Origin: a virus
Virus genome (UHGV): UHGV-1488451
Direction: 5' to 3' (one strand)
DNA: 38,329 bases
The stretch's first letter is position 1, and each line of letters begins with the position of its first letter. The notes beneath the pieces are model-generated. The model was given only the letters and a program-made list of their open reading frames with translations, searched no databases and was not told where the DNA came from. The translations under genes and the position numbers were made by a program. This document shows, in pieces, positions 1 through 29,364 of this stretch.

Positions 1-72
1 GGACACCCACGCGTCGCCGGACACCCACGCGTCGCCGAACACCCACGCGTCGCCGGACACCCACGCGTCGCC
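1..72 (-). repeat. Four more 18-bp units of the same array at the left window edge
   Basis: Units at 1-18, 19-36, 37-54 and 55-72 encode GDAWVS/GDAWVS/GDAWVF/GDAWVS on the minus strand. Confidence 0.9.
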
Positions 73-124
73 GGACAAGTTCGATTCCTTTTCAATGAAA
101 CCGCCGAGTTCGCCTTTATCCACA
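1..124. repeat. Left copy of imperfect terminal direct repeat (wrap-around of the circular map)
   Basis: nt 1-124 align base-for-base with 38206-38329. By eye there are 3 mismatches (window nt 15, 45, 69) and an exact match over 70-124. Confidence 0.9.
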
Positions 125-222
125 TATCGGCTTGGGATGTTCTCGGTGGCTTGAATACGGTACAGCGTGCGGCCAAAGACCGTGATTGTTTCGTCAGTGA
201 GGCGGTACTTTCTTTCGCTCAT
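1..222 (-). CDS. 5' portion of the same hexapeptide-repeat protein (internal-start version), truncated by the window edge
   Basis: ATG at 222 is preceded by aaaaaggaaagaata (SD-like AAGGAAAG). It encodes MSERKYRLTDETITVFGRTLYRIQATENIPSRYVDKGELGGFIEKESNLS followed by repeats. Confidence 0.75.
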   Translation of the reverse strand, partial: MSERKYRLTDETITVFGRTLYRIQATENIPSRYVDKGELGGFIEKESNLSGDAWVSGDAWVFGDAWVSGDAWVS

Positions 223-645
223 TATTCTTTCCTTTTTGGTGAATCTTTCGATGCATCGGTTGATGTCGTCGATGGTGATGTTTCCCCAGGGTTCGTTGAT
301 GTCCCTGTCAAGTTGCGGGGTTCGTGCGGGGAGTGTTCCTCCTAATGCGTATGGACGTTGGTTGTTTTTTGGGGTGAATTTCATCGGGTGCGGCATGTTG
401 GATGCGCTGGCATGGTTGCTGAAAGTTCCTGGGATGATTTGCAGCAGCCCGACCCCGTGTTCTACTGGGGCGTTTTGGTCTCGAATAGGCGCTATTGCGG
501 GGCCTGATTCGGCTTGGATTTCCTCGAGCACCCGTTTTATGTGGATTGCGTTTAGGATTCTTTGGCAAATGAGAGCTGTTGCTTTGATTTTGAGAAGTTG
601 TTGCATTGCTGTTAGCGGCTCAAAACTGCGGATGGTGTTAGGCAT
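1..645 (-). CDS. Longest version of the same ORF: an SLT-like lytic transglycosylase module (223-645) reads in frame, with no stop, into the repeat protein
   Basis: I translated the frame codon by codon and found no stop from 819 down to nt 1. ATG candidates are at 765, 645 and 606. The 645-223 segment encodes ...EEIQAESGPAIAPIRDQNAPVEHGVGLLQIIPGTFSNH...DRDINEPWGN. It shares E-S-G and the exact 12-aa string GVGLLQIIPGTF with the SLT domain of the tape measure. The true start is uncertain and the SD before 645 is poorly spaced. Confidence 0.45.
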   Translation of the reverse strand, partial: MPNTIRSFEPLTAMQQLLKIKATALICQRILNAIHIKRVLEEIQAESGPAIAPIRDQNAPVEHGVGLLQIIPGTFSNHASASNMPHPMKFTPKNNQRPYALGGTLPARTPQLDRDINEPWGNITIDDINRCIERFTKKERIMSERKYRLTDETITVFGRTLYRIQATENIPSRYVDKGELGGFIEKESNLSGDAWVSGDAWVFGDAWVSGDAWVS

Positions 646-1025
646 GCTCCGTGGATGGTGCCGATGTTGGGGTTGGGGGTGAGGGCGTTTCGAATGGGGC
701 GGGCATTTTCTTTGGTCTTTCTTTGGTAGTGGTTTTGATGGTTTGAGGCCCCCTGTGTTGTTCATCCACTGTGGGGGCTTTGTGGCGTGGCGCGGGGTTG
801 CACCGCGCTTTTGTGCTGCTCACGCCTTTGCTGTGTTCTTTCTCGTGTTCGTTCCCTCCGGTTTTTGTCCGGGTTCCTGGTGTCCTTGCCGATGCTTTGC
901 GAGAGCTTCGTCACGTTATCCCAACGTGAGGTAAGTATCTTTCACGAGGCAGCTAATTAAATTTTCACACATCATAAGGTTCTTTTTATCTTCCGCTTGT
1001 GTTGCTCTTAGCGGGCGATGACTTC

Positions 1026-1054
1026 ATTTAAGACCAGCTGATCGAATCTTGCAA
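1026..1054 (-). promoter_or_regulatory. Candidate leftward early promoter (TTGCAA-17 nt-TTAAAT on the minus strand)
   Basis: The minus strand reads ttgcaa gattcgatcagctggtc ttaaat. The call rests on a sigma-70-like pattern only. Confidence 0.35.
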
Positions 1055-1131
1055 CAGCCACCATCAAATGCCACCCCCGACCGCTACCCCCATTTGATTA
1101 AAAAACATTAATCTACCTGCCTCATTGCATA

Positions 1132-1151
1132 GTGACCTCAAATGAGGTTAC
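1132..1151. promoter_or_regulatory. Operator-like 20-bp near-palindrome gtgacctcaaatgaggttac
   Basis: It shows dyad symmetry, mismatched at 4 of 20 positions against its own reverse complement, i.e. 2 of the 10 symmetric base pairs (8 of 10 pair). It lies 10 nt upstream of the repressor ATG, with an extra half-site cctcatt at 1120-1126. Confidence 0.45.
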
Positions 1152-1160
1152 GCTGTAGGC

Positions 1161-1535
1161 ATGAGACACAAAGACTGGGTAGAAAACCTTATTGGCCCCG
1201 ACTCCATGCGCACAGCAGCAGCCAAACTTGGCCTATCCCCCGGCGCAGTGTCCCAGCAGATTAGCCGTGGAAGTTTGAAGCCAGACATGGTGATCGCGCT
1301 TTGCCGCGCTTATGGGCGGTCACCGATTGATGGGCTTGTAGAGACCGGGTTTCTTGAGCGGTTCGAGGCGGGCGCAGCTAGCCCTGCTTCGGCGCTTAGG
1401 GAGGCGACGAATCAGCAGATTCTTGGTGAGATTATGCGGCGTTCCGATGCTGATGCGGTGCGGCTATTTAGGGCTGAGGATGAGGATGTGGCGGTGTCGT
1501 CGCAGGTGAGGGCGGATGGTCCTTACAGTGATTGA
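1161..1535 (+). CDS. Immunity repressor-like HTH DNA-binding protein
   Basis: 124 aa with the HTH-like segment MRTAAAKLGLSPGAVSQQISRGSLKPDMVIALCRAYG. It is divergent from the early array and upstream of the xis/int module. A possible TTGCAT-18-TACGCT promoter would make the mRNA leaderless, which is speculative. Confidence 0.65.
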   Translation: MRHKDWVENLIGPDSMRTAAAKLGLSPGAVSQQISRGSLKPDMVIALCRAYGRSPIDGLVETGFLERFEAGAASPASALREATNQQILGEIMRRSDADAVRLFRAEDEDVAVSSQVRADGPYSD

Positions 1536-1577
1536 CTGTAGTTACCCCTTTATTGGTGGGGTTGCTGAACTGCCATC

Positions 1578-1606
1578 TTGTTAATTGCAGAGTGGCGCTG
1601 TAATAT
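1578..1606 (+). promoter_or_regulatory. Near-consensus promoter TTGTTA-17 nt-TAATAT upstream of the moron-like cassette
   Basis: ttgtta lies at 1578-1583, a 17-nt spacer follows, and taatat lies at 1601-1606. The element sits in a locally AT-rich patch after the repressor stop. Confidence 0.5.
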
Positions 1607-1664
1607 AAATCTTGTAAGGCAAACAAGCCTCACGCCCACCTCAAACCCGAAAGGACCAAGACCA

Positions 1665-2000
1665 ATGACCACCATCACCCTCAACAACCTCGACTGGAAC
1701 ATCGCCCCCGCTGAATGGGGCATCGCATACGGCGAAATGGCAAGCCTCCCCACAGAAGAATCCACCCACAACGGCCCACAGTTCATTGTCGATTTCGATC
1801 TTGACGGCACCCGCAAAGCACGCCTCGCAGTAGACCCAACCATTGCTGGAATGAGCCGCGAAAAGGGCATGGCATTCAGCGACGACACCAACGATTGGCC
1901 AGTACTCGATGCACTGTTTGGGCGCGAACAATGGCAGCAATGGCTTGCTGACAAGACCGAGGAAATGCGCGCCCTAGACTCCGAAGACCTCGACGACTAA
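1665..2000 (+). CDS. Hypothetical acidic protein (111 aa), lysogeny-region cargo
   Basis: ATG at 1665 is preceded by aaaggaccaagacca (SD AAAGGA). The track ORF at 1578 extends upstream over the promoter. I recognise no family. Confidence 0.65.
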   Translation: MTTITLNNLDWNIAPAEWGIAYGEMASLPTEESTHNGPQFIVDFDLDGTRKARLAVDPTIAGMSREKGMAFSDDTNDWPVLDALFGREQWQQWLADKTEEMRALDSEDLDD

Positions 2001-2014
2001 CCACCATGCAAACC

Positions 2015-2034
2015 CCGGGGGCTTCGGCCCCTGG
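2015..2034 (+). terminator. Stable hairpin with UUCG tetraloop after the 111-aa ORF (no clear U-tract)
   Basis: ccgggggc-ttcg-gcccctgg forms an 8-bp stem including one G-U pair. It is followed by attaagg, so terminator function is doubtful. Confidence 0.35.
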
Positions 2035-2049
2035 ATTAAGGAACCAACA

Positions 2050-2346
2050 ATGAACACCCCCTACACCTTCAAGCACGTCATGTCAGGACGCTGGGAAGTC
2101 ATCCACAAAGGCAAAGCATTCGCAGTCATCGAGAGAAGCACCTGCTATTCCTCAAAAGACGGCATCATGGAATCAGCTGAATTGTGGGTAATCATTGACC
2201 CCGTAACTGAAATTCACCAGCAAGGGAAACTCCTGAACACCCTCTACCCGACTGAGTGGGGGCACCGCACCTACCGCGAGGCAGCAGCCACTGCCTGGGA
2301 AAACTACCAGAAATACGGCGCACCTGTTCCCATCGGACGAAACTAA
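2050..2346 (+). CDS. Hypothetical protein (98 aa), lysogeny-region cargo
   Basis: ORF with SD aaggaa 6 nt upstream of the ATG. I recognise no family. Confidence 0.65.
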   Translation: MNTPYTFKHVMSGRWEVIHKGKAFAVIERSTCYSSKDGIMESAELWVIIDPVTEIHQQGKLLNTLYPTEWGHRTYREAAATAWENYQKYGAPVPIGRN

Positions 2347-2353
2347 ACCAGAC

Positions 2354-2377
2354 CCCCGCCACCATGCGGGGTTTCAT
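2354..2377 (+). terminator. Hairpin plus T-run after the 98-aa ORF
   Basis: ccccgc (2354-2359) pairs with gcgggg (2366-2371) across the loop caccat, followed by tttcat. Confidence 0.5.
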
Positions 2378-2392
2378 GAAAAGGAAGCAATA

Positions 2393-2557
2393 ATGAACTG
2401 CGATATTCTTATCCTCGTTGTTATTATATCGAACTTAGCCATGCTGGCGGTATTATATCCGCGCGAAATGGATAGGGTACTCGATTCGTATATAGAAACT
2501 ATCCGCAATTGGATTCAGGCTATCTGCAAAATTTACAGGAAGGTGCACCGTGGATAA
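2393..2557 (+). CDS. Small AT-rich ORF encoding a 54-aa predicted single-pass membrane peptide
   Basis: It is not in the ORF track because it is under 60 aa. ATG 2393 follows aaaaggaagcaata (SD AAGGAAG). The product is MNCDILILVVIISNLAMLAVLYPREMDRVLDSYIETIRNWIQAICKIYRKVHRG, with a hydrophobic N-terminus and basic C-terminus. My hand count gives about 41 percent G+C (68/165), far below the flanks. Confidence 0.55.
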   Translation: MNCDILILVVIISNLAMLAVLYPREMDRVLDSYIETIRNWIQAICKIYRKVHRG

Positions 2558-2659
2558 TCAAACCCGAAACTCTGATGGTGTTTCTCGCCACAATCCCGCT
2601 TTGCCCACCAGTTCCCCGGCGGAGCGCGGGCGCATGGTTTATGATCAGGGGTGCCGCGT

Positions 2660-2893
2660 ATGACCACCCCGCTCGTCGAAATCACGCTACCCGGCGGCGG
2701 GGTGGCCTGGTCCATCACCGCAGTGCTTGACCACACCGGCCTATCACAATCATCATTCACCGCATACGTTGCACGCGGACAAGCCCCCGCCCCCACCCAT
2801 CATGTTGAGCGCACTAGGCTATGGGACGCTAAGGAAATCAAAGCCTGGTGGGCAACCCGCCCCGGAAAACCCGGCCGCCCCGCACGAACCTAA
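2660..2893 (+). CDS. xis: AlpA/excisionase-family HTH protein, likely Xis
   Basis: TGLSQSSFTAYVARGQAPAPTHHVERTRLWDAKEIKAWW matches the AlpA/Xis pattern. It lies immediately upstream of int on the same strand. ATG 2660 is preferred over the track GTG at 2651. Confidence 0.65.
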   Translation: MTTPLVEITLPGGGVAWSITAVLDHTGLSQSSFTAYVARGQAPAPTHHVERTRLWDAKEIKAWWATRPGKPGRPART

Positions 2894-2896
2894 CCC

Positions 2897-2926
2897 AGCC
2901 CCCACCCCGCACGGTGGGGGCTTTCC
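2897..2926 (+). terminator. Hairpin (10-bp stem) plus TTTCC after xis-like gene
   Basis: agcccccacc (2897-2906) pairs with ggtgggggct (2913-2922). A second hairpin, tccgcat/atgcgga, lies at 2924-2946. Confidence 0.5.
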
Positions 2927-3010
2927 GCATGACAAAACAATGCGGACACAAAACCCCCAATAATTAAATAAAAACCACATCTGACCTGCAACAATGCAAG
3001 GACAAAAACA

Positions 3011-4135
3011 ATGGCATCAATCAAACGATATGACACCGCCAAAGGAACAAAATGGCGCGTCCAATACCGCACCCCAGACGGCAAAAGCCGCACCAAAACC
3101 GGATTCCGCACCAAAAGCGAAGCCGAAAGATGGGTGGCCACACACACCACCTCCATCATCAATGGCACCTGGGTTGACCCCAACGCAGGCAACATAACCA
3201 TCCAGGCCCTCGGCACACGATGGATGGAAACCCGCACCCACCTGAAACCCTCAACAGCACGCGTCGAAGCCCTCGACTACAAAAACCACGTCCTCCCACA
3301 CTGGGGGCACCGGCGCATCAAAACTATCAAACCGTCGGAAGTGCAAGCCTGGGTGTCAGCCAGCGCCCAATCACCCTCAACCACCAGGCACCACCATGCG
3401 ATCTTGTCGAAGATTCTAGACATGGCCGTCCTCGACAACCTCATACCCGCGAACCCGGCTAAAAGCGTCACCCTGCCCCGCAAGAACAACCCAACAAAGG
3501 TGTACCTCACCATCAGCCAATTGAAGCGCCTAGCGGACGAGGCAACGGTTCGGGGTGAGCTGATCTGGCTGTTGGGAACCACTGGCCTTAGGTGGGGTGA
3601 GGCCGCTGGCTTGCAGGCGCAAGACTTGGACCCGCTGAACGGGCGCATCAGGGTGGCGAGGAACGCAGTAACGGTAGGGGGCGAGGTGGTTGTCGGAACC
3701 CCGAAAACTCATGAGCGGCGCACAGTGGCTTGCCCTGGGCATGTGATGGGGATGCTTGAAGATGCGGCACGTGGTAAGCCGCGCACCGGGTGGTTGTGGG
3801 AGTCGCCTGCGGGCGGGCCTATGCGGCTTCCGGGGAAGGGTTCTTTTTTTCATTCGGCGTTGGGGCGCGTGCGCGCCGAAGACCCGTCGTTTCCTTCGTT
3901 GACTATTCATGGTCTTAGGCATGTGGCAGCCGGACTTTTAGTTTCGGCGGGGGCGAATGTGAAGGTGGTGCAAAAGCAGCTTGGACACAAGTCTGCGGCT
4001 ATGACGTTGGATGTGTATGCGGAGTTGTTTGACGATGACTTGGATGCGGTGCGTGGGGCGTTGGATGCTTTGGTGGGTTCTTTGGGGAATGTCGTCAAAT
4101 TGTCGTCAAATCGGGGTTTTGGTGACGCGGTTTAG
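3011..4135 (+). CDS. int: Tyrosine integrase (phage integrase family)
   Basis: 374 aa with an N-terminal SAM-like/arm-binding region (KWRVQYRTPDGKSRTKTGFRTKSEAERW). The C-terminal catalytic motifs are LRWGEA...HGLRHVAAGLL...LGHKSAAMTLDVYAELF. Confidence 0.95.
   Translation: MASIKRYDTAKGTKWRVQYRTPDGKSRTKTGFRTKSEAERWVATHTTSIINGTWVDPNAGNITIQALGTRWMETRTHLKPSTARVEALDYKNHVLPHWGHRRIKTIKPSEVQAWVSASAQSPSTTRHHHAILSKILDMAVLDNLIPANPAKSVTLPRKNNPTKVYLTISQLKRLADEATVRGELIWLLGTTGLRWGEAAGLQAQDLDPLNGRIRVARNAVTVGGEVVVGTPKTHERRTVACPGHVMGMLEDAARGKPRTGWLWESPAGGPMRLPGKGSFFHSALGRVRAEDPSFPSLTIHGLRHVAAGLLVSAGANVKVVQKQLGHKSAAMTLDVYAELFDDDLDAVRGALDALVGSLGNVVKLSSNRGFGDAV
4088..4110 (+). repeat. Arm-type repeat copy 1: aatgtcgtcaaattgtcgtcaaa (two tandem TGTCGTCAAA motifs), inside the int 3' end
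   Basis: Exact 23-bp match to 4298-4320. Confidence 0.85.
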
Positions 4136-10570: not shown

Positions 10571-11146
10571 CTATTCCTCGCTACCCTTTTCGTCACTGTT
10601 ATTTTTTTGCAGTTCCGCCAACAACAAAGCCCGCTGCTTCGCCGTCAACTTCGACACATCAATCGGAGCCGCAGCATCCTCCACAACCTGCACGGCACCT
10701 TGCCGCTCCTCCAAAGCACCAATCCAACGCCCATCCTCATTCGGGGAACCAACACCACCCAAAGCATCAAACTTGATCTGCGGCCCAACATGCACAGTCC
10801 ACGACCAAACCCCCTCAGGCAAAGTGCCCTTCATCAACCCAGTACGCGGGTCAAGCGACAACCCCGGAGGCAACACCGGACACCACACCGCAGCCAACGA
10901 ACCACCAGGAACCAACTCATCAACCTCACGCGAATCATCCCACCCACGCGAATACTCCACCGTAGTTGGCTCCTGATCATGCAACTTCACCCCCACAAGA
11001 TCAAACAAAAACCTGCACAAATCATTAATCAGATCAATGTCCATGTTGAACCCCAGGGGCTTAATCAACAAAGGCGCATACGGGTGCATGCCCTCAGGCA
11101 CCGGATAAGGCCACATGAAATCCAACTGCTTATTACCAGTAGACAC
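10571..11146 (-). CDS. Minor tail protein with putative Ig-like (He_PIG-type) segment
   Basis: 191 aa. The LPPGLSLDPRTGLMKGTLP motif is typical of putative Ig domains. The GTG start has the SD agaaggg. Confidence 0.7.
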   Translation of the reverse strand: MSTGNKQLDFMWPYPVPEGMHPYAPLLIKPLGFNMDIDLINDLCRFLFDLVGVKLHDQEPTTVEYSRGWDDSREVDELVPGGSLAAVWCPVLPPGLSLDPRTGLMKGTLPEGVWSWTVHVGPQIKFDALGGVGSPNEDGRWIGALEERQGAVQVVEDAAAPIDVSKLTAKQRALLLAELQKNNSDEKGSEE

Positions 11147-13560: not shown

Positions 13561-16500
13561 CTATGTGAGAACAGTGGGCGCGCCACCAACATGACGCTCA
13601 CCCTTGATCTTTTTCAGGTCTTTGGTGTTCACCTCGACCTTGCCCTCCACAGCCTCCACACGCTGCCGCAGGACTTCCTCACCATCCACGTTCACCACCA
13701 GGGTTAGCTGACCACCATCGCCCTTATCGGCGATTTGTTTCAGCACACCCCACTGGTCGTTAGTGAGAATCGCTTCCGGCTTGCCGGACAGGTTCACCGC
13801 CGCACCCTCATGAGGCAGCACACCGCCCTGGTCATACAGGCGTGTACCACCACGGGCACGCTGACCAGCCCAACCAGCGAGGTTCACCAACCCGTGTGCC
13901 GCGTCGATGTCCTCCATCAGGCTAGCCAAACCACCAAACCCATCATCACCACCATTAAAAGCGGCACCGAGTTCACCCCACGCGGCACCAGCATCAGCGG
14001 CCTTGTTGACAAGGAACTTGGCGCGCTCCTCACCAACAACACCAGCTGTTGCGCCGTACCCGTAGTCGCCACCGTTGAAGGCGGTCGTGAACTCCTCGGC
14101 CACGTTCGCGGCCAGGCTGTTGCGCACCATGCGGCCGAAATTACCGGTGGCGTTCACCAGTGTTTTCGCGTGCGTGTCGCCGATCAGCTGGCCGAGCCCG
14201 CCGAAGCCGTCATCACCGCCGTGGAACGCTGTTGTGAGTTCTTCACGTGCAGCATCCACGGGGTTGATCTGCGGCCCTGTTGGGTTAATGTCCTGCGGGT
14301 TTTCCGGTTTTGCGTCGGCAACTGCGGCTGCGGCACCATCAACCCCGGAAGCAGCGGTGTTAGAATCGCCTGCCTGTTTGGCCTGCTCTTCTTCCTTCTT
14401 CTTCTGGTCGCGGGTGAACCAATCCGGTACAGGCGCAAGCTTGTCCGGTGGGGTTGTGGCCAGCTTCTTGATCAGGCCGTTTCCGCCGCCGATGAACTCG
14501 AAGAACGCGTCTTGTGCAAGTGCGTCCGGGGACTTGTTGCCAAGGGTTTTCCAGAACACTTCGTTGGCGATGCCAGCGCCGTAGGCCCCGGCGTCTTGCC
14601 AGCGTTTTACTTCGTTCTGGGCGTTGACGATTCCTTGGTGTGCGGCTAGTGCCGCGACTACTGCGGGGTGGTCTTCTTCGAGGTGGGTTGCGTCTGCGCC
14701 GAGGTATTCGCCGGTGTTGATGACGTGCATGAGTGCGTCTGCGGCTTGTTTCCAGGCTGCGGGGCCTTTGTTGCCGAGTTCGACGAGGGCTGGGATTGCG
14801 TTTCGGAGGTCTCCGAAGTTGCGTTCCAGCATGTCCCACTGTTCAGCGGTTAGGACAGCCTCTGGCTTTCCTGTGTGGTTCCAGTAGGTGCCGAACCCTC
14901 CTGGGGTGGGTTTGAGCCAGCCGCCGGAATCGTAGCCATGTCCATGACCCCACATTGTGGTCAAATCAGTGCCGTACCTGCTCTTGTAGTAGCGGAGCGC
15001 GGCGTTCATATTGGCCCACGGGTCACGCCTATCGTTCGGCAATTCGGGGTCACGGTTGGCTGCGAATGTGCCGGGGATGATCTGCAGCAAGCCAACGCCC
15101 GCACTGTCGCCAGTTCCGTTGACGTCGACAATCTGCTGTGCAATACCCGGGTTGCCACCAGACTCAGACTGAATCTGGGCCAGCATGGCGTTGACCTGCG
15201 CCGGGTCATCAGCATTAAAGCCTTGACGACGCATCGCGGCCATTGCCATTTCGCGCCACGACTCGGCATTACCAGCCACACCAGCGGCACCGGAGAAGGT
15301 GCCCACCTTCGACTTGATAAAGTCCCAAGCCTTGTCAGCGAGGGTTTTAGCGATAGCTCCGGGGAGCTTGCCGAAGTCGCCGTGCTGCTCCTTGCCTGGG
15401 AAGTCGCCGATCTTATTGATCGCCGCGTCCCACAGGCCCTTGACCATTGCTCCGAGGTTGAAGCCGCCACCGCCACCAGCGCCACCTGAAATGAACTCCC
15501 CAAGGAACTCCTTCAAAGTGTAGGTGTGGTTGAACAGGCTGTTATCGGAGCCACGTGCCGCACCGCCGATCTGCACGCCGTGATCGCCCGCCGATTCCAA
15601 GTTAACCCCGTCGATAGTGCCCGCCATGTGGCCGTTCTCGCCGCCGCCTTTGCCGGACAGCACGCCAATGGTCACGCGGCCAGACAAGCCGGGGACGAAC
15701 CCGAAGTTACCAAAGTTACTTTCGGTGTTGAAGATACGTCCTGCGCGCAGCGAACCGCCGTTCAGGAACTGCGTAATGCCTGACCACAGGCCCGAGCAAT
15801 CCCAGCTGGGGTTGCCGGTGCCCCCATACTGATAGGGCTTGCCGTGCTCAGATTTGAGTTCATTGAACAAGGCCGCAATGCGCTCAGTCAGGTGATCGCG
15901 CTGATCAGTGCCGCCATTAGGGAACACGCCGCCCTTAGCGAACGCAAGGGCACGGTACACGCCGCCGCGCGCGAACGCGGCACCCTCACCCAGCATCTTC
16001 TTGACGCGGCTCACGCCACCACCAATGGCGGCTTTGTTCAGCGCATCAACAGCAGGCTTACCGCCCATAGCCTTAGTGACCTCTGGGCGCATGATCGCCT
16101 CACCGCCGGACAAGCCAAGCAGCCCGCCAGTGGGGCTGTAGAAATGGTGAATATCCTTACCAGGACTGTAACCAGGCAGGACACCACCGGTTGCGAAATG
16201 ATGCTCTGGGAGTTCACCAAGGCCAACCAGCTTGGCCACCGTGTTCCAGGCTTTCCTGATGCCACCGTTGTAGACCGTGTTGACCACGAACTCAACAGGT
16301 TTTTTCGTCTTGTCCTTGATGCCGTCCCAGATGCGGCCGATATTATCGACGGTCTGACTGAACCAGTCTTTGACTTTCGTCAACCCGTCTTTCAGCCCGT
16401 TGAACACCGGGTGCACCACATTATCAGCAACCCAGCGTATGCCGTTGCCGAGGGCTTCCCACGTTGGTTTGATGTAGCCGTTCCAGATGCTGGAGAAGAA

Positions 16501-19500
16501 GTCCCCCAACGCCTGCAAACCGGCCTGCATCAGGTTCCACGTTGGTGTAACAACCGTGTCGAACACCCACTTGATGCCAGCGCCAAGACCGTTCCACACA
16601 GCCTTGATGAACTCGACCATCGGGTTAAACACATTGTTGGCCAGCCATGTGATTCCCGCGATCATTAAATCCCAGGTGGGTTTGATGATCGTGTCCCACG
16701 CGAATCGAATGGCAAGGCTCAGGCCGTCCCACTCGAATTTGATGAAACCGAAAATCGGCATGAGGACGTTGTTCCACATGAAGTTTGCCGCGCCTTGCAG
16801 CAAATCCCACGCGGGTTTAATCACGTTGTCCCAACCAGCTTTGATGCCCCATGACAGGGCTTCCCAGGCCAGCAGCAGCGGTGTCAGCACGATCGTTCCG
16901 ATCAGCGCCAGGCCAAACTTCGCCGCGTACTCCAACGCGTCCCACGCCGGTTTGATCAGCGTGTTCCACGCCCAGGCGATGCCAGCGGAAATAGCATTCC
17001 ACGTGTCACCCAGGAACTGGATACCAACACGCACAGCATCAGCCAAGTAGTTGCCCACCCATTGGATGACCACACCAACCACACTGATTAGCGGGTTGAA
17101 ACCATTGGTGATAATCCACGACAAAATGTTCGTGGCCTGCGACAAAATCCACGCTAATCCCTCAACGGCTTTCACCGCCCCAAGGATTGCGCCCACCACC
17201 ACGCCACCAACAATGATACCGATGGTTTGCAGCACCGGCATCAGCACCGGTTCAAGCAGGTTCCACAGCTGCACAAGCAGATTCCACAAGCCTTGCAGCG
17301 CACCCCACACAGCACCCGTGATCGTCTGGCCAAGACTATTCAAAGTCGTGGCCAAGGTCGTGACAGTGTTCCACAGGCTCGTGAAAGTGCCACTCAGCGA
17401 ATCCACAATTATGCCGCGAATCCACTCCATTGCATTACCGACGGTGGTGAAAGCATCAGCAATCATCTGCGCTTTGTCCGCGCCGAAAAGGGCGGTCAGC
17501 CCGCCGATGCCAGCATCATCGCCCTGGAACGCGGCGAACAGCTCACCAATGGATGCCTTCACATTCTGGAACGCAACGCCCATGCGCTCAGCAAAATCAA
17601 CAATCGCCTGGGCTTTATCAGCCCCGAAGATCGCCATGAGGCCACCAAACCCGGCGTCGCCGCCGTTGAAAGCCTCAGTGATTTCACCCCACGCGGCTTT
17701 CAGGTTGCTGAACAGAGTGAACACCGGCTGTAGGGCTTGCCCCATGAAGCTGGTGAACTCGCCCCAAATCCGCTTGCCCGTCTCGGTCTTCGTGAAGAAC
17801 AAGACCAGGGCACCAACAACGGCGGCTATGCCAGCGACAATCAAGCCTATGGGGTTGATCAGCATGGCTGTGTTCAAGCCCATTTGTGCGGCCGTGGCCT
17901 GCAAAGTGCCCGCGCGCTGCGCCGCAAGCAGGGCAGGCAAAACTTTCATCTGCGCTGCAAACGAACTAATCGCAGACACCGCAAACAAACCAGCCTGCGC
18001 CGCCCGCAAAGCAGCCATGCCAGCAACAACACCACCAACAGCGCCGCCAATAACAACCAGCAAATCCTTATTGCGGCCCAGCCACTCAGCCACAGCAGGA
18101 AGCTGATTAGTCAACGCGCCAATGGAGTTCCCCAGACGATCACCCCACGCCGAAAGCGTAGGCTCAGCCAAGGCGTACAGCTGCAGCTGCAAATCATCAA
18201 TCGCGTTTCCGATACGGTCCATCACACCATTCAGGCCAGCGAGCTTAGCCCCCGCAGTTTCACCAGCGGAGCCTTGCCGGTCGAGAGAAGCACGCAGCTT
18301 ATCAAACCCCTCGACACCACTGTTCGCCGCAGTAGTCGCAAACGATACAGCCTCACGCCCAAACGCGGTTGCAGCAGCGGCGGTAAACGCACTCTCACCC
18401 ATGCGGTCCTGCGCGGCCGCCAGCTGCGCGGTGATTTCCCGCATACCCACGAACTTGCCTTGCGCATCGAACGCATTGACACCCATCTCAGCAAGCGCCT
18501 TAGCGCCTTCTTTTGACGGGTTAGTAAGCGACAGCAACGCCGAACGCATCGCCGTACCAGCCTCGGAACCCTTGATGCCAAGGTTGGCGAACAAGCCAAG
18601 ATACGTACTCGCATCCTGCAAAGACACACCCAGAGTGGAGGCAATAGGTGCCGTGTACTTGATGGAGTCGCCTAGCTCAGTCAAGCCTGTAGCACTGTTA
18701 TTAGCGGTGTTAGTCAACACGTCAGCAACAAGTGACGCATCCTTAGCCGCCAGGTGGAAACCATTCAACGCCGCGATCTGAATATCAGCAGCAGTGCCAG
18801 CATCAACCTGAGCAGCACCCGCAAGCTGAATGGAACCCTTTGCCGCGTCCATAGCATCAGACACCGACAAACCACCCTTAGCCAACGCCAGCATCGCATC
18901 AGTAGCAGATGCGGCACTAGTGCCAGCCAGGGTTTCATCGTTGCCAAGGTCGCGGGCACGCTGCGACACCATCTTCATAGTGTCCCCAGTCGAACCCGTC
19001 ACAGCCTGCAACGACCCCATCACCTGCGACAGCTCACGGCCTTTACCAATGGCATCACCAAAAAACGCGGCACCACCAGCAACACCAAGACCACCAGCAA
19101 TAACCCCACCAAGACGACCAACCGTCCCCACAAGGGAACTAATCTTCCCGCCCACACTATCCACATCACCAGAAAGGCTCAGCGCCCAAGCCTTCGACTT
19201 CTCAGCCGCGCCAGTGAACGTGAAACCAGTCTTCTTAACCTGGTCCCCAACATGCCCAGCAGCCTCAGCAGCCTTACGCTGCGACGCTGCGGCGTCCTCC
19301 ATTGTGGCCTTGTACAGTTTCTCCTTGGCGCTCACCTGGTCGTTGGCGTTCGCTAAATCAACCTTAGCTTTCTTAAGCTCCCCCTCCGACTTCACCAAAG
19401 CAAGTGACGCACGGTCAGACTGGCGTTTAGCAGTCTCTAGCTCACGCTCCGCGCGCTGAACCTCCTTCGAGTCAGCGTCATTAGCGTTACGCGCGTCCTG

Positions 19501-20076
19501 AAGTTTCTTCTCCGCAGCCGCGACTTTCTCATTAGCTGCGGCGACTTTATCCCGCTGCTCCCCCACAGCAAGATCAGCGGCCTTTACCTTCCCCGATGCC
19601 TCAGCTGCGGCAATACGAGCCTTCCCAAGGTTATCCTCAGTACGTGCCACCTGAGCCGCGGTTGCGACGCCGCCCTCACGAATAGCCTTAAGGTCAGTCT
19701 CACCACGTGCGACCTGGGCGGTAGCCTGATCAAGCTTGGCTTTGGCCACTGCCGCATCAGACTCCGCGCGCGCCACCTGCGACGCCGTGGCCGTGCTGCT
19801 GTTACGCGCCTGCTGCAGTCGCTCCTCAGCCACCGCAACATCCTGCGCCGCCTGCGCCTCAGCCTTACGGGCCGCAGCAACCACGCGGGTTTGCTTCTCG
19901 ACGCCCTCAGCCAGCGCGGCACCGGCGTTCTGGCCGGACTTCTCAAAGCTCTTCTCGATCAGGGCGCCAGCATCATCAGCAGCCTTCGACGCGCCCTTCA
20001 CCACCTCAGCGGCGAAACCACGCATCGAAGCATTAACCGGAACCCACACAGTAGACGCCACCGCGCCACACTCCAA
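13561..20076 (-). CDS. Tape measure protein with embedded NlpC/P60 peptidase and SLT lytic transglycosylase domains
   Basis: 2171 aa with coiled-coil Ala/Lys-rich N-terminal and TM-rich regions and W-x repeats (IKPAWD/IKPTWD). The NlpC/P60 motifs GKPYQYGGTGNPSWDCSGLW...GHMAG lie at about nt 15520-15870. The SLT motifs QSESGGNP...GVGLLQIIPGTF lie at about nt 14950-15200. There are also five AFNGGDDGFGGL-type repeats. The start may be GTG 20061. Confidence 0.93.
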   Translation of the reverse strand: MECGAVASTVWVPVNASMRGFAAEVVKGASKAADDAGALIEKSFEKSGQNAGAALAEGVEKQTRVVAAARKAEAQAAQDVAVAEERLQQARNSSTATASQVARAESDAAVAKAKLDQATAQVARGETDLKAIREGGVATAAQVARTEDNLGKARIAAAEASGKVKAADLAVGEQRDKVAAANEKVAAAEKKLQDARNANDADSKEVQRAERELETAKRQSDRASLALVKSEGELKKAKVDLANANDQVSAKEKLYKATMEDAAASQRKAAEAAGHVGDQVKKTGFTFTGAAEKSKAWALSLSGDVDSVGGKISSLVGTVGRLGGVIAGGLGVAGGAAFFGDAIGKGRELSQVMGSLQAVTGSTGDTMKMVSQRARDLGNDETLAGTSAASATDAMLALAKGGLSVSDAMDAAKGSIQLAGAAQVDAGTAADIQIAALNGFHLAAKDASLVADVLTNTANNSATGLTELGDSIKYTAPIASTLGVSLQDASTYLGLFANLGIKGSEAGTAMRSALLSLTNPSKEGAKALAEMGVNAFDAQGKFVGMREITAQLAAAQDRMGESAFTAAAATAFGREAVSFATTAANSGVEGFDKLRASLDRQGSAGETAGAKLAGLNGVMDRIGNAIDDLQLQLYALAEPTLSAWGDRLGNSIGALTNQLPAVAEWLGRNKDLLVVIGGAVGGVVAGMAALRAAQAGLFAVSAISSFAAQMKVLPALLAAQRAGTLQATAAQMGLNTAMLINPIGLIVAGIAAVVGALVLFFTKTETGKRIWGEFTSFMGQALQPVFTLFSNLKAAWGEITEAFNGGDAGFGGLMAIFGADKAQAIVDFAERMGVAFQNVKASIGELFAAFQGDDAGIGGLTALFGADKAQMIADAFTTVGNAMEWIRGIIVDSLSGTFTSLWNTVTTLATTLNSLGQTITGAVWGALQGLWNLLVQLWNLLEPVLMPVLQTIGIIVGGVVVGAILGAVKAVEGLAWILSQATNILSWIITNGFNPLISVVGVVIQWVGNYLADAVRVGIQFLGDTWNAISAGIAWAWNTLIKPAWDALEYAAKFGLALIGTIVLTPLLLAWEALSWGIKAGWDNVIKPAWDLLQGAANFMWNNVLMPIFGFIKFEWDGLSLAIRFAWDTIIKPTWDLMIAGITWLANNVFNPMVEFIKAVWNGLGAGIKWVFDTVVTPTWNLMQAGLQALGDFFSSIWNGYIKPTWEALGNGIRWVADNVVHPVFNGLKDGLTKVKDWFSQTVDNIGRIWDGIKDKTKKPVEFVVNTVYNGGIRKAWNTVAKLVGLGELPEHHFATGGVLPGYSPGKDIHHFYSPTGGLLGLSGGEAIMRPEVTKAMGGKPAVDALNKAAIGGGVSRVKKMLGEGAAFARGGVYRALAFAKGGVFPNGGTDQRDHLTERIAALFNELKSEHGKPYQYGGTGNPSWDCSGLWSGITQFLNGGSLRAGRIFNTESNFGNFGFVPGLSGRVTIGVLSGKGGGENGHMAGTIDGVNLESAGDHGVQIGGAARGSDNSLFNHTYTLKEFLGEFISGGAGGGGGFNLGAMVKGLWDAAINKIGDFPGKEQHGDFGKLPGAIAKTLADKAWDFIKSKVGTFSGAAGVAGNAESWREMAMAAMRRQGFNADDPAQVNAMLAQIQSESGGNPGIAQQIVDVNGTGDSAGVGLLQIIPGTFAANRDPELPNDRRDPWANMNAALRYYKSRYGTDLTTMWGHGHGYDSGGWLKPTPGGFGTYWNHTGKPEAVLTAEQWDMLERNFGDLRNAIPALVELGNKGPAAWKQAADALMHVINTGEYLGADATHLEEDHPAVVAALAAHQGIVNAQNEVKRWQDAGAYGAGIANEVFWKTLGNKSPDALAQDAFFEFIGGGNGLIKKLATTPPDKLAPVPDWFTRDQKKKEEEQAKQAGDSNTAASGVDGAAAAVADAKPENPQDINPTGPQINPVDAAREELTTAFHGGDDGFGGLGQLIGDTHAKTLVNATGNFGRMVRNSLAANVAEEFTTAFNGGDYGYGATAGVVGEERAKFLVNKAADAGAAWGELGAAFNGGDDGFGGLASLMEDIDAAHGLVNLAGWAGQRARGGTRLYDQGGVLPHEGAAVNLSGKPEAILTNDQWGVLKQIADKGDGGQLTLVVNVDGEEVLRQRVEAVEGKVEVNTKDLKKIKGERHVGGAPTVLT

Positions 20077-23725: not shown

Positions 23726-24940
23726 CTACGCACCCGCCGTCAGCGTCACCTTGACGAAAGCCGAAGGCAGCGGAACCATCAGACCGATACGCTCCTCAGC
23801 ACGCAAAGTAACAAGGTTCTTCTCGAAATCATCAGCGTTGGTGTTCGAGGAATCCACACGCAAACCACCCTTGCGGAGGATGGTGGAACCCTGACGGAAC
23901 GCACCCACAAGGGCGGTACCCTTCGGAATGTTGTTCGTCACAACAGTACGGTAGCCCCACACCGGCGGGTCAACCAGAATGCCACCAACACCGTACTGAC
24001 CCTGGAACGGGCCACCAGCAATGTACTGGCCGTTACCGTCCTTAGCGAGACGCAGAACCTCATAGTCAGCGGTGTTCATGATGATGCCGTCAGCAGTCAG
24101 CGGGGTTGCCTGAGCAACCTTAGAGATCGCACTGTACAGGTCATCAAACCAATTGGCTTTCTTAGCAGACGTCACCGTCTGAATGCCGGAGCGGTTCAGG
24201 ATGCCACGCACATTGCTGCCCGTGCCGTCGCCGCTGATCAGCTGCTTTTCCTCCACAACGGAAAGCTCGTAGATGAGCTGGTTGTTAATCCAGTCAGCCA
24301 CGAACCCGAAGTCCGCGATCATCTCGTCGGAAAGCTTCGTCAACGCGGCGATCTTCGACAGAGATTCAGTCACAATGTCAAGATCAGCGAACCGGACATA
24401 GGGTTTCTGCGCCCCCTCAGCCACAGACGCAGGCGCACCCTCGGCGATGCGGTTGGCCTTCTCCACCAAATATTTGATGGTGGGGAGGTCCACATTCGCG
24501 GAACCCATCAGGTCAGCGGCAACCAGCTTCTCACGACGCTGGTTAACAATGCTGCGCTGGTACATGGTGCCGAAACCATCAACCAGCGGGGTTGTCTTAG
24601 CCGGGTCGCCAGCGGCCTTGAACTCAGGTGCGGAAATCTCCAGGCGTCGGGAACCTTGCTGCTTAAGGCTTTCGCCAGCAGACTTCACGAAATGCTCACC
24701 CAGGGATTTAGCCTCAGGCTGCAGCGGGGTTTCACCGGTGTCGATGTTGCGCAGCTTCTCGAAAACCGAGTTGGCTTCCTTCACCTTTGCAAGTTCAGCG
24801 TCGAGGGCTTCGGCCTCGTGGAGGGCTTCTTTCAGTTCGGCGAGCTGCGCATCTGTCACCTCCTCGCCAAACTGCGAGTAGAGGCTTTTTGCATGGTCAA
24901 ACGCGGCGTCACGACGCTTACGCAGGGTTTTGTTACCCAT
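23726..24940 (-). CDS. Major capsid protein, HK97 fold, with N-terminal delta/scaffold-like domain
   Basis: 404 aa. The first ~100 aa are coiled-coil-like and the remainder is typical of the HK97 family (e.g. LISGDGTGSNVRGILN, RAEERIGL). Confidence 0.93.
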   Translation of the reverse strand: MGNKTLRKRRDAAFDHAKSLYSQFGEEVTDAQLAELKEALHEAEALDAELAKVKEANSVFEKLRNIDTGETPLQPEAKSLGEHFVKSAGESLKQQGSRRLEISAPEFKAAGDPAKTTPLVDGFGTMYQRSIVNQRREKLVAADLMGSANVDLPTIKYLVEKANRIAEGAPASVAEGAQKPYVRFADLDIVTESLSKIAALTKLSDEMIADFGFVADWINNQLIYELSVVEEKQLISGDGTGSNVRGILNRSGIQTVTSAKKANWFDDLYSAISKVAQATPLTADGIIMNTADYEVLRLAKDGNGQYIAGGPFQGQYGVGGILVDPPVWGYRTVVTNNIPKGTALVGAFRQGSTILRKGGLRVDSSNTNADDFEKNLVTLRAEERIGLMVPLPSAFVKVTLTAGA

Positions 24941-25629
24941 TAGTGTTTCTCCTTTTCCAAGATCATGAGGCGGGCACCCAGCTTGTTCAGGGCGCCCTGG
25001 TTATCGCCGCTCTTCTTGGCGGCATGAGAAAACCCCGGGGGTGGTGTTCCCTCGGGGCTAGTGTCGTTTCCGGTCAGCGCGTCACGCATTGATTTCAGCA
25101 TCAACGCCATTGCCTTCGACATTTCCGCGCCGGACTCGGCGGCTTTCACCGCGAGCACTTCGGTTTCCTGGTTCGCGCCGATAGGAACGACACTGACCTC
25201 GTACAGGCGCACCTTGCGAATCTCGAAAACCCAATTGTCGTTGTCTTTCATTTCCGCGCCTTCGACAACATCAAACGCGAAACTCATTTGCGACAAGCGG
25301 CGCTCTTTCAGCAGACGGTAAACCTGGCTAGCTTTCTCATTATCCAGGTCAAGCTTCGCACGGATTTTCAAACCATGATCATCCTCAACAGCCTCAACCA
25401 CCGTGCCAATATTGCTGAACGGGTCTCGGAAATCATGGCCATACAGCAAAGGCAGCTGATTACCGGATTCCTCCCACTCCTTCAACGTGTCCGCAAACGC
25501 GCCCTTACGGATAACATCACCGTAAGAATCCACATTATCGAACACACTTGCATAGGCGACAATCTCGCCCGCCTCAACCTCAACATCATCAGGCTCTTTA
25601 ACCCGAACCTTCAAATCCTTCAACTTCAT
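24940..25629 (-). CDS. Prohead (HK97-type, S78) maturation protease, internal-start product
   Basis: ATG 25629 is preceded by gagaaaggaggtgttgccctt, a strong SD. The product is MKLKDLKVRVKEPDD...AYASVFDNVDSYGDVIRKGAF...LLYGHD... Confidence 0.88.
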   Translation of the reverse strand: MKLKDLKVRVKEPDDVEVEAGEIVAYASVFDNVDSYGDVIRKGAFADTLKEWEESGNQLPLLYGHDFRDPFSNIGTVVEAVEDDHGLKIRAKLDLDNEKASQVYRLLKERRLSQMSFAFDVVEGAEMKDNDNWVFEIRKVRLYEVSVVPIGANQETEVLAVKAAESGAEMSKAMALMLKSMRDALTGNDTSPEGTPPPGFSHAAKKSGDNQGALNKLGARLMILEKEKH

Positions 25630-26088
25630 AAGGGCAACACCTCCTTTCTCACCCCCAGGCAACTCCGGGGGATTCTCATACCAAGCATCAATCCGCGCCA
25701 ACACATCATCAGACGCGCCAGCCTCAGTAGCACGCTCCACACAAACATCGCGCCCAGGGTCAACCAAATGGAACACCGCACCAGCCCCCTCAAACTTGCT
25801 GACAAGCGCAGCAGGTGGATTCTCCGACACAAACCACAACTCATCAACAATCGTCTCAGGGTCAAGCAGCCACCCCACCAAGCCCCTACGCATAGCCAAC
25901 ACCGCATCAACAACACCAGGCGGAACATCAGCCTCCGGCTTGTCGACGCCCCCCACCACCGCAGCAACCGCATCAAAATCAAAACGCGGCACCCCAGCGC
26001 TAGCATTCTCCGCAACAAACACAGACTTGCCAGCAAACGGGGGGCCAACCACAACGTTAACCGCCACCGTCATCACCTCCATCAACAC
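24940..26088 (-). CDS. Full ORF: N-terminal P-loop NTPase domain (~150 aa) fused in frame to the prohead protease
   Basis: A single 382-aa ORF with no stop. It has Walker A VVVGPPFAGKS and a Walker-B-like ELWFVSE. The start GTG 26088/ATG 26082 follows aggag and overlaps the portal 3' end. Confidence 0.6.
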   Translation of the reverse strand: MLMEVMTVAVNVVVGPPFAGKSVFVAENASAGVPRFDFDAVAAVVGGVDKPEADVPPGVVDAVLAMRRGLVGWLLDPETIVDELWFVSENPPAALVSKFEGAGAVFHLVDPGRDVCVERATEAGASDDVLARIDAWYENPPELPGGEKGGVALMKLKDLKVRVKEPDDVEVEAGEIVAYASVFDNVDSYGDVIRKGAFADTLKEWEESGNQLPLLYGHDFRDPFSNIGTVVEAVEDDHGLKIRAKLDLDNEKASQVYRLLKERRLSQMSFAFDVVEGAEMKDNDNWVFEIRKVRLYEVSVVPIGANQETEVLAVKAAESGAEMSKAMALMLKSMRDALTGNDTSPEGTPPPGFSHAAKKSGDNQGALNKLGARLMILEKEKH

Positions 26089-27310
26089 TAGGGGGCTCCT
26101 CCCCCGGGTCCACCGCAGTGTTCAACGGCACCAACAAATCATCCCCACCGTCAACCGAAGGCAGGTTGTTCATCGCACGCGCCTCATTACGTGTCATCCA
26201 CGGGCCACCAACAGCGGTACTGGTGACCTGCGCCTTTTCCTCAAACGAGGCGCGCAGCTTCTCCTCAATGTTGAACTCAAAGTAAACGTCGTCTTCAACG
26301 CCGAGCTTTTCCAGCAGGAACACGTTCAGCGTGTCCTCAATCTGTTTGATGATCGGGCCGAGGGAATCCCCGTAGAGACTCTTCCGAAACTCCCTGACGT
26401 TTGAATAGTTCGCATTATCCAGCAAACCAACCATCGTCGGATTGACCTGGAAAACACTAGCCACCGTCGCAAGGGACAACTTGGCCACATCAACGACATC
26501 CTCATCAGACGCTTTAAGATGCATCGACTTGAAAGACATGCCGTCCTCAAGAATCGGAGTGCCACCCGCACCAGAACCACGCCCCGAATACTGCGACTGC
26601 CAAGCCGCCTTAAACCGGCGACGGTCCATACCCTCCCAACGCGGAGCACCCGCAGGACGCTCAATCACACCACTAATACGCGGCCCGTTCTTCCACAACT
26701 GACCACGATACGCAGCAGATTCCAACTGCTCCTTAAGCAAGTCTTTCAGCGTGCGCACCTTCGAAGCACCACGTTTATAACTCCCCGGGGAATAGCCATG
26801 CACACGAATGATCTTCTCCGCCGGAATCTCCAACGGCTCACCAGTCTTATCATCCGTAATCACAATGGATTTCAACGTCCATTTATCTTCCCACCGCAGA
26901 CGATGAACCCACGTCGGAGAAACAGGGTAAATCTCCGGGCCGTCACCAGCGTCACTGATCACCCAAATGAACTCGTCATACAGGCACAGGTCCATGACAG
27001 ACGCATACAGCAGATCATAGAAAACCTGCCCCGCATTGGCCTTCTTCACTAGCCTCGCCAGCGGGCCGGTTCGCACACGCTCACGCCCACCATCCTCAGC
27101 ATGACGATAAACATGAACCCCAATCGACGCGATATTCCGGGCAATGAAATCCGTGACCGTCCGAAGGTGCGGTTGGGAATCCCAAAGCTGCTCCACACTG
27201 AAACCATCAATCGACGCCGCCAACGATTCAAGAATCGGCAACGCCAAACCCTCAGGCTCAGGAACAGACACCGCCGTCGGAAGAAACCCCAAACGCTGCA
27301 AAATCCCCAC
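26057..27310 (-). CDS. Portal protein (HK97 family)
   Basis: 417 aa between TerL and the protease. GTG start with the SD aggaggtga. Confidence 0.92.
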   Translation of the reverse strand: MGILQRLGFLPTAVSVPEPEGLALPILESLAASIDGFSVEQLWDSQPHLRTVTDFIARNIASIGVHVYRHAEDGGRERVRTGPLARLVKKANAGQVFYDLLYASVMDLCLYDEFIWVISDAGDGPEIYPVSPTWVHRLRWEDKWTLKSIVITDDKTGEPLEIPAEKIIRVHGYSPGSYKRGASKVRTLKDLLKEQLESAAYRGQLWKNGPRISGVIERPAGAPRWEGMDRRRFKAAWQSQYSGRGSGAGGTPILEDGMSFKSMHLKASDEDVVDVAKLSLATVASVFQVNPTMVGLLDNANYSNVREFRKSLYGDSLGPIIKQIEDTLNVFLLEKLGVEDDVYFEFNIEEKLRASFEEKAQVTSTAVGGPWMTRNEARAMNNLPSVDGGDDLLVPLNTAVDPGEEPPSVDGGDDGGG

Positions 27311-27323
27311 CAGAAATCACCTC

Positions 27324-28943: not shown

Positions 28944-29232
28944 CGGCCGCCTTCATACGCTCCATCACCGAAACAACCGCCACAGGGCGGTCACGGTCCT
29001 CAGGAATTCCCCGCGCCTCCGGCGTGCACCCCAACGCCCCCAACGCCTTCAACAAATGAGGCCCCAAATACAACGCCTTTGTGCGGTCATACCCAGCATC
29101 AACAGGCACGAAATCAATCTGCCGAGCATACGACAGCGCCAGCTCCTGCAATGCCTTATCTGCACCGGTGACGTTCTCGCCACGCGCCTCAATTGAATCA
29201 AGTACAGCCTGTTCAAGCGGCCCAACAGTCAT
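28924..29232 (-). CDS. terS: Terminase small subunit (position-based)
   Basis: 102 aa from ATG 29232 (SD ggaaggag). It overlaps the terL start by 20 nt. The track start at 29319 lacks an SD. Confidence 0.7.
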   Translation of the reverse strand: MTVGPLEQAVLDSIEARGENVTGADKALQELALSYARQIDFVPVDAGYDRTKALYLGPHLLKALGALGCTPEARGIPEDRDRPVAVVSVMERMKAAGGGRAG

Positions 29233-29364
29233 GATTAAAGCTCCTTCCAGAAACCAGGTCTTGCGCGCGCGATACCCCCAAAAACGAGTGGGGGGAGAGG
29301 ACAGGCCCACCCGGCTCAAATGTCCTGGTCAGGTGTGCTGGTGATTTGCTACCCCCTACCGTTG

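Follow-up and report, generated by a model that had tools for sequence, protein, structure and literature searches.

The stretch of DNA examined here, referred to as the window, is the whole 38,329-nt contig of the viral genome UHGV-1488451. It carries on its minus strand, at 606-235, a small module that resembles the core of the SLT (GH23 lytic-transglycosylase) domain of phage tape-measure proteins. The explanation that we favour, with a probability of roughly 0.7, is that 606-235 is a real translated gene of one small clade, derived from a tape-measure SLT core and only incidentally fused to the solenoid cassette that follows it; the clade is a small group of Corynebacterium-type temperate phages. 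SLT domains and tape-measure SLT motifs are already well known. Among cultured phages, tblastn against 50,697 phage genomes showed no truncated tape-measure-type SLT core that forms a small early gene, and a literature search brought up no early-operon SLT gene derived from a tape-measure protein. If the module is expressed, the functional core of a virion protein would have been excised, moved to the early region and selected as a small protein of its own, which would represent a clear case of domain recycling inside one phage genome. It would also offer a simple candidate for asking whether tape-measure-derived domains serve exclusion or wall remodelling.

Selection on the module frame and choice of its start

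Viral and metagenome contigs and an exact-protein look-up supplied relatives of the window, whose loci form two groups. The protein search gave five clusters with the module and many with the solenoid protein alone.

Group A: L001/L087, L002/L086, L003, L004, L005, L006, L007, L008, L012 and L158 (916 nt); the complete ones are ~38 kb
Group B: L009-L011, L013, L014, L084 and L088; mostly ~50 kb, sharing sequence only from window ~234 leftwards

The members of group A other than L158, which was added later through the exact-protein look-up, match window 1-1200 over its whole or almost whole length, with 88-96% identity. The assessment of coding draws on the group-A alignment of 10 contigs, namely the window and nine other distinct relatives. 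The following features were delimited.

235-606, minus strand: core open reading frame (ORF) of the SLT-like module, running over 124 codons between ATG 606-604 and K124 (237-235), delimited by dN/dS ratio (omega), indels and codon periodicity
607-940, minus strand: A/C-rich, T-poor putative untranslated leader, from the presumed early promoter region to ATG 606, with indels that are not multiples of three and no periodicity

The first-pass annotation, made from the sequence alone, had described a minus-strand frame without stops from 819 to 1, and this was borne out: the frame is open over 273 codons and the first in-frame stop farther upstream lies at 822. The motifs that it had pointed out, ...EEIQAESG...GVGLLQIIPGTF...EPWGN..., are present in the minus-strand translation. 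Their order in the module frame is ...IKRVLEEIQAESG-PAIAPIRDQNAPVEH-GVGLLQIIPGTF...DINEPWGNITIDDINRCIERFTKKERI, from where translation continues straight into ATG 222-220.

The purifying selection that was to be looked for in this frame is found. For 606-235, omega (pooled Nei-Gojobori) is 0.30 in the claimed frame, with a bootstrap range of 0.23-0.48, against 0.82 and 1.19 for the remaining two frames of the minus strand. By subregion it amounts to 0.26 for residues 1-62, 0.50 for an insertion described below and 0.29 for the C-terminal part, and variable sites are distributed 31/22/51 over codon positions 1/2/3. The only indels inside 606-235 measure 24, 3 and 3 nt, all multiples of three, and no frameshift occurs in this 372-nt body; those upstream of 645 measure 1, 1, 29, 11, 37, 30 and 1 nt. 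Furthermore, base composition within 606-235 shows a marked codon periodicity (p=3e-6, with T occurring 10, 34 and 9 times at codon positions 1, 2 and 3), which is absent from 765-607 (p=0.45) and from 930-766 (p=0.68).

The start codon had been left open between 765, 645 and 606, and it is settled here in favour of ATG 606, which is kept in all 10 aligned contigs and is the sole start common to all relatives. Six of the 10 (L002, L003, L005, L006/L007 and L012) lack ATG 645; L005 has lost ATG 765 and L012 has it in another frame, and neither codon can act as a universal start. The earlier suggestion that the module might be untranslated leader thus holds upstream of 606 and fails for 606-235. 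We conclude from these substitution and indel patterns that 606-235 should be a protein-coding gene and that the sequence upstream of it would be an untranslated leader.

Kinship with the tape-measure SLT core

The parallel with the tape-measure protein of the window involves the following elements.

14932-15234, minus strand: SLT domain (PF01464) in the tape-measure gene, the paralogue of the module, residues ~1615-1715 of the 2171-aa protein
505-510, minus strand: Glu-Ser codons E33-S34, putative catalytic motif of SLT/GH23 domains, invariant in 10 family members
421-456, minus strand: SLT motif II codons, GVGLLQIIPGTF, identical in sequence to tape-measure residues 1660-1671
319-420, minus strand: region containing a 29-residue insertion relative to tape-measure SLT domains, residues ~63-96, corresponding to a 29-column gap in hhalign

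When compared by BLASTP, the module and the tape-measure protein (13561-20076, minus strand; 2171 aa) match with E=4e-8 and 33/93 identities, including an identical 12-residue string. The counterpart AQIQSESGG...GVGLLQIIPGTF...DPWAN was located at residues 1634-1689 of the tape-measure protein, as had been claimed. The order of the motifs stands, but the spacer between ES and GVGLLQIIPGTF has 15 residues in the module and 18 in its tape-measure counterpart, instead of the 20 and 22 given previously. It was also correctly noticed that the shared string is written differently in the two genes: the module has GGGGTCGGGCTGCTGCAAATCATCCCAGGAACTTTC (456-421) where the tape-measure gene has GGCGTTGGCTTGCTGCAGATCATCCCCGGCACATTC (15099-15064), and each of the 8 differences among 36 bases is synonymous. 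Because the same peptide is written in different synonymous codons, constraint at the protein level is indicated.

The E33-S34 pair of the module aligns with the ES of the tape-measure SLT domain at the sequence level by BLASTP, hhalign and MAFFT. Residues G53-L54-L55-Q56-I57-I58-P59 match a GLMQ-type motif II, and this motif is nearly invariant in the relatives, with a single L-to-P change in L003. The insertion region is rich in P, N, H, T, K and Q and is the most variable part of the module; L004 carries an 8-codon deletion inside it.

Profile comparison of the module family (A1) with the family of tape-measure SLT domains (A3) by hhalign gave a probability of 96.5% and E 8.4e-10; the alignment spans 59 columns, with 47% identity, and contains a single 29-column gap. 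In a joint MAFFT alignment, the N-terminal helix region and the [DE]PW.N helix were paired as well. When the module was searched by tblastn against the phage genomes mentioned above, 93 records matched at E<=10, with a best E of 1e-4, and the 25 best of these 93 matches all lie in annotated tape-measure genes of Gordonia or Rhodococcus phages. The set of 93 also holds Tsukamurella, Nocardia, Arthrobacter, Staphylococcus and Corynebacterium phages, and the matches extend over module residues 19-109. The PHROGs collection gave one weak match, to phrog_7025 (tape measure). The hhalign probability and the tblastn matches in tape-measure genes uphold the proposal that the segment and the tape-measure SLT core are diverged relatives, and the homology of the module to this core, as judged from these alignments, is solid and well supported.

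The module family itself is tiny and occurs in one clade only. A phmmer search of the module against 1.84 billion representatives returned its own family and the repeat-driven artefacts P0041 and P0042; a profile search of 5.8 billion proteins gave nothing beyond the module's own family, and a scan of genome contigs with the module gave no match.

The module shares with the tape-measure domain the succession of a helix, E-S, a 15-18 residue loop, G-V-G-L-L-Q-I-I-P-G-T-F, R.P.L..D..[DE]PW.N and a second helix. It differs in several respects: it is a 124-aa frame heading an early operon and not part of a virion protein, it carries the 29-residue insertion after motif II, it ends ~14 residues past PW.N, it falls below any Pfam threshold and it is written in A/C-ending codons. 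It also lies outside the tape-measure context (PF10145, tail operon), ~13 kb from the tape-measure gene. The module also loosely resembles the resuscitation-promoting factor (Rpf) domains of small, stand-alone lysozyme-like proteins: these too are GH23-like, of ~100 aa and equipped with a catalytic Glu, and occur in Actinobacteria and the phages of these bacteria. Rpf proteins are secreted and have a Pfam family of their own, whereas the module has neither a Pfam match (E<=1) nor a visible signal peptide, and no specific similarity to Rpf was shown.

According to the explanation that we favour, an SLT core of actinophage tape-measure proteins would have been captured or duplicated. The module would then have kept the helix-Glu-Ser, GLLQIIPGTF and [DE]PW.N motifs under purifying selection, gained the 29-residue loop, which is probably disordered, and lost the last third of the domain.

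The junction with the solenoid gene

Downstream, the module frame meets a gene for a YdcK-like beta-solenoid protein that crosses the contig ends.

1-222, minus strand: 5' part of the YdcK-like beta-solenoid gene, from ATG 222-220, with an 18-nt/hexapeptide repeat, crossing the contig junction
37699-38329, minus strand: rest of the solenoid gene, with 14.8 copies of the 18-nt repeat, a C-terminal domain and the stop TAA 37701-37699
223-234, minus strand: junction codons K-E-R-I without a stop, holding the Shine-Dalgarno (SD) sequence GGAAAG (232-227) of the next gene; putative recombination joint
L003 junction: one A of the A-run lost, giving ...RKEQ, with the stop TGA overlapping ATG (ATGA)
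L004 junction: 2 nt lost, the module frame extending over 10 codons of the next gene in a different frame
L158 junction: one C lost, giving ...RKE, with the stop TAA overlapping ATG (TAATG)

The window is a circularised contig, in which 38206-38329 duplicates 1-124 (121/124 identical) inside the 18-nt tandem repeat. The ends overlap in the repeat; therefore, the repeat protein continues at 38329 and stops at 37699-37701. The full 212-aa solenoid product (P0006) is 98% identical over the covered part of the query and matches PF18836 with 48.2 bits (cut-off 30) and E 5e-13. The repeat at 1-77 and 38017-38282 encodes the hexapeptide G-[DN]-A-[WRE]-V-[SF]. Its copy number varies greatly among near-identical phages, with products of 163-247 aa, and is uncertain in the window, because the array varies and the contig is cut within it.

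The passage of the module frame, as ...F T K K E R I, into ATG 222-220 with GGAAAG in front is present as described by the first-pass annotation. Such read-through, as K-K-E-R/I-I/T-M directly into the solenoid gene, is found in eight of 11 related contigs (the window, L001, L002, L005, L006, L007, L008 and L012), so that in the window (240-217) and seven others the internal SD and ATG lie in frame within a longer ORF. Both are retained in all related contigs. The further idea that this nested-start or fusion architecture is a conserved design is contradicted, as the two ORFs are separated by independent frameshifts in three of the 11 contigs, not in all of them. These frameshifts of L003, L004 and L158 differ from one another and lie at ~226-238, all in the last ~15 nt; by our arithmetic, the chance of three in three falling there under neutrality throughout would be (15/385)^3, ~6e-5. 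The A-rich run at this place, ACC AAA AAG GAA (226-240, minus strand), is slippery-like (C AAA AAG), and three relatives changed length at or near it.

Group B offers a second view of the joint. In these seven ~50-kb relatives the solenoid gene stands alone, without the module, after a methyltransferase-like ORF and behind a terminator (hairpin and T-run) and its own strong SD, AAGGAGAGG; their homology with the window begins at ~234, at the solenoid SD. The group-B gene is thus a moron-type cassette composed of terminator, SD and gene. More distant solenoid homologues, 50-60% identical over the first 50 residues, were seen in many unrelated viral contigs, which makes the solenoid gene a widely travelling moron. 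The downstream partner of the module resembles YdcK-like solenoid moron cassettes (PF18836; phrog_7964 / phrog_5070), of which the copy in the window's clade differs in lacking the terminator and spacer and in abutting the module coding sequence.

Because of the frameshifts at the junction and the break of homology at the SD, the fusion is best understood as a by-product of cassette recombination that is not selected. Sequence comparison says that selection probably maintains the module peptide and not its linkage to the solenoid. In this explanation, the mobile solenoid cassette would have joined the module at the cassette's SD, by chance in frame and without a stop, with the loss of its terminator and spacer, and the missing end of the SLT domain would coincide with this recombination joint. 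Translation from ATG 606 would give a module-solenoid fusion of ~340 aa in most genomes and a ~128-aa protein in three, and initiation at the internal SD/ATG 222 would give the solenoid alone. As the junction shows, in-frame fusions without a stop can be produced by mosaic recombination at an SD and later be resolved by small frameshifts.

The same observations bear on the possibility of a designed two-domain protein, with an SLT-like N-terminus and a beta-solenoid, whose internal start would produce long and short isoforms. We regard it as unlikely. Read-through in eight of 11 contigs and retention of the internal SD and ATG in all of them are in its favour, and the fused form is the parsimonious ancestral state, since the separated forms carry different mutations. 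Nevertheless, three independent frameshifts fall exactly at the junction and none in the 372-nt body, the solenoid, preceded by a terminator and a strong SD, is autonomous in the seven ~50-kb phages and at many more distant loci, and the homology break at the SD marks a cassette joint. In-frame nested phage gene pairs are a related precedent, as the internal SD/ATG (232-220) in eight of 11 contigs would allow two products sharing a C-terminus. Here, however, the in-frame relation is broken three times independently, at a cassette joint, and the upstream part is a domain of other origin and not an extension of the same protein.

Possible role, remaining alternatives and genomic setting

The module was placed first in a presumed early operon, and it does head an operon, as the first ORF, that diverges from a helix-turn-helix (HTH) repressor gene.

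1161-1535, plus strand: divergent HTH repressor-like gene (phrog_16278, E 8.5e-22; further repressor PHROGs; weak HTH_3), which marks the operon of the module as the presumed early lytic one

The neighbourhood comprises, according to PHROGs and Pfam, this repressor, a Cro-like HTH gene (37482-37727), an excisionase-like gene and a RecE/YqaJ exonuclease. We infer early expression of the module solely from its position. Concerning its role, the putative early protein, with no visible export signal, would most likely have inherited from the tape-measure domain a glycan-strand or peptidoglycan binding capacity or a weak muralytic activity.

A different role was also considered, in which the module is a tape-measure mimic, a non-enzymatic decoy that binds the SLT target or an incoming tape-measure protein and thereby acts in superinfection exclusion or modulates wall penetration. 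Superinfection-exclusion proteins are known to target tape-measure proteins. The only relatives of the module are tape-measure domains, the truncation, missing motif III and missing export signal speak against a normal secreted enzyme, and the module adjoins the immunity region together with a moron-type cassette. Against a decoy, there is no PADLOC match, the catalytic Glu-Ser, needless for such a function, is invariant, and the module lies in a presumed lytic operon that is not obviously expressed in lysogeny. On balance, we find the mimic decidedly improbable. There is likewise a slim chance that the phage copied the SLT core of its own kind of tape-measure protein to a place near the immunity region and uses the copy, alone or tethered to the solenoid scaffold, as such a mimic, which would block or modulate the entry of superinfecting genomes or tune wall remodelling from inside. 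If true, a part of the virion would have given rise to a defence or accessory function.

Several observations weigh against the module being a translated SLT derivative with the extent proposed here. The Pfam search for which the absence of a hit had been named as refuting the SLT assignment gave no PF01464 match even at E<=1, and hmmscan with 223-645 and 223-819 found no Pfam family at that threshold; the tape-measure control matched PF01464 with 27 bits and E 3.6e-6 over residues 1631-1715. No NCBIfam and no PADLOC family was assigned to the module, and a PDB sequence search with the family profile yielded a chance match alone (E 0.96). Predicted folds are of low confidence, with a mean predicted local distance difference test (pLDDT) score in AlphaFold2 of 49.1 for a 6-sequence alignment and 49.2 for a 17-sequence alignment. 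Motif III and the C-terminal SLT lobe (RYG.DL..MWG.GHGY in the tape-measure version) have no counterpart in the MAFFT alignment: the module stops or merges into the next gene at ...CIERFTK and the last third of the domain is missing. By inspection, neither a signal peptide nor a membrane segment that would allow it to reach peptidoglycan was seen, and its N-terminus, MQQLLKIKATALICQRILNAIHIK, has no clear signal peptide. As for the start, ATG 606 has no recognisable SD, the ten codons in front of it (TIRSFEPLTA) are conserved, with an omega of ~0.4 on very few sites, and eight of 10 contigs have ATG 765 in frame; in some genomes the protein could therefore begin further upstream. Finally, the relatives are just 4-12% divergent and not independent, and omega is built on few events.

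Some of these points would equally suit an untranslated, decaying copy of tape-measure DNA in an A/C-rich leader, held open through T depletion: the absent SD and Pfam match, the low-confidence fold and the unstable 3' junction. The minus strand is indeed poor in T (15% in 223-645 and 5.5% in 646-900), and 223-900 is very A/C-rich. When 646-819 (T = 5.5%) is shuffled, a given frame remains open in 36% of cases, and two of the three frames are open in the actual sequence; shuffles of 223-645 keep a given frame open in only 0.4%, and one frame is observed open. Because of this difference, the open frame of 646-819, which is expected by chance, can be seen as an effect of composition and that of the module part cannot. 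An untranslated copy also conflicts with the frame-specific omega, with indels that are all in frame, with the strong codon periodicity in which T is kept at position 2, and with the preservation of the 12-residue motif across 8 synonymous changes relative to the tape-measure gene, and we hold it to be very improbable. As a caution for annotation, long open frames are uninformative in T-depleted DNA, where the true start needs selection tests. That the real gene would be the antisense ORF 167-682 on the plus strand, with 171 codons, wobble positions coinciding with the module frame, third positions that are the variable ones and the best omega of the plus frames (0.49), is scarcely credible and was rejected, given its interruption by stops or frameshifts in the majority of relatives (L003 has 12 stops, and L002, L004 and L008 have 4 each), an omega above the 0.30 of the minus frame, a G/V/F/L/S/C-rich artefact as product and an overlap with the start of the solenoid gene.

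The codon composition of the module separates it from its paralogue. The share of A and C at third codon positions (A3+C3) is 0.80 in the module, 0.41 in the whole tape-measure gene and 0.48 in the SLT segment of the latter. Within the window, two classes of genes were compared, G3+T3 being the corresponding share of G and T.

Early and lysogeny genes: A3+C3 = 0.50-0.94, above 0.6 in 8 of 13 listed ORFs; RusA, 30575-31108, = 0.94
Structural genes: G3+T3 = 0.42-0.88, above 0.6 in 13 of 20 listed ORFs; 10571-11146 = 0.88

The module belongs to the early composition class, and the synonymous differences in the shared 12-residue string fit this split between early and structural genes. Nearly all of the genes classed by composition are on the minus strand, those of lysogeny (1161-4135) on the plus strand. 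The RusA assignment was confirmed by PF05866, and an HNH endonuclease-like ORF (29365-29649) lies in the same A/C-rich patch. On the coding strand, the A/C-rich extremes are 29300-31100, 223-900 and 35573-36473 and the G/T-rich ones 10571-11146 and 24940-28943, with sharp boundaries, for instance at ~29200-29300. In a cultured Corynebacterium phage, LGCM-V4, the first of the early regulator genes is biased to the same extreme (0.92). Ongoing mutation pressure was rejected as the source of the A/C richness, with 22 singleton substitutions in relatives away from A/C and 11 towards them. The split could arise from selection for unstructured early mRNA, from Rho loading or from the origin of a genome module.

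The leader upstream of the module is itself highly conserved. About 280 nt (720-1000) are almost invariant in the 10 aligned contigs, whereas the flanking coding DNA varies by 4-12%; within 801-1000 there are 1-4 variable sites per 50 nt. Hairpins were noted on the minus strand at 858-872, 790-808 and 748-778, and a palindrome, TCACGTT...AACGTGA, at 929-911. A search of 1-3200 against Rfam gave nothing credible, the folding of the leader RNA is not unusual (z = -0.78), and one compensatory pair was found among 77 in an alignment too conserved for covariation. The conserved stretch could contain operators, a promoter or a functional leader; more speculatively, the leader may combine nut-like hairpins with a C-rich zone for Rho loading. 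Antisense to this leader, the plus-strand stretch 789-813 is terminator-like (GGCGCGG-GGTTGCA-CCGCGC(T) followed by TTTTG) and is the same element as the minus-strand hairpin 790-808; matches of this kind are inflated by the T-rich plus strand, with 7 found and 2.3 expected.

The host is an actinobacterium, probably Corynebacterium, because of terminase and integrase similarities. The terminase is closest to that of Corynebacterium prophages of the LGCM-V series (54%), and the integrase scan gave matches in the host phylum only, the best full-length one at 60% identity (E 2e-133) in a Corynebacterium sp. genome. A tRNA scan of the window found none. Between the repressor and the integrase, two plus-strand ORFs, 1578-2000 (140 aa) and 2050-2346 (98 aa), have an A3+C3 of ~0.72 and no match in Pfam, PHROGs or PADLOC; in temperate actinophages, this interval often holds accessory genes expressed in lysogeny. 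Finally, the minus-strand ORF 31239-32426, encoding a 395-aa early protein, contains at 31923-32010 degenerate 11/22-nt tandem repeats that encode ...NPNRNRNESESNANRNRNENEMNPNR...; these are iteron-like, and a replication origin might lie here, inside an initiator-like gene.

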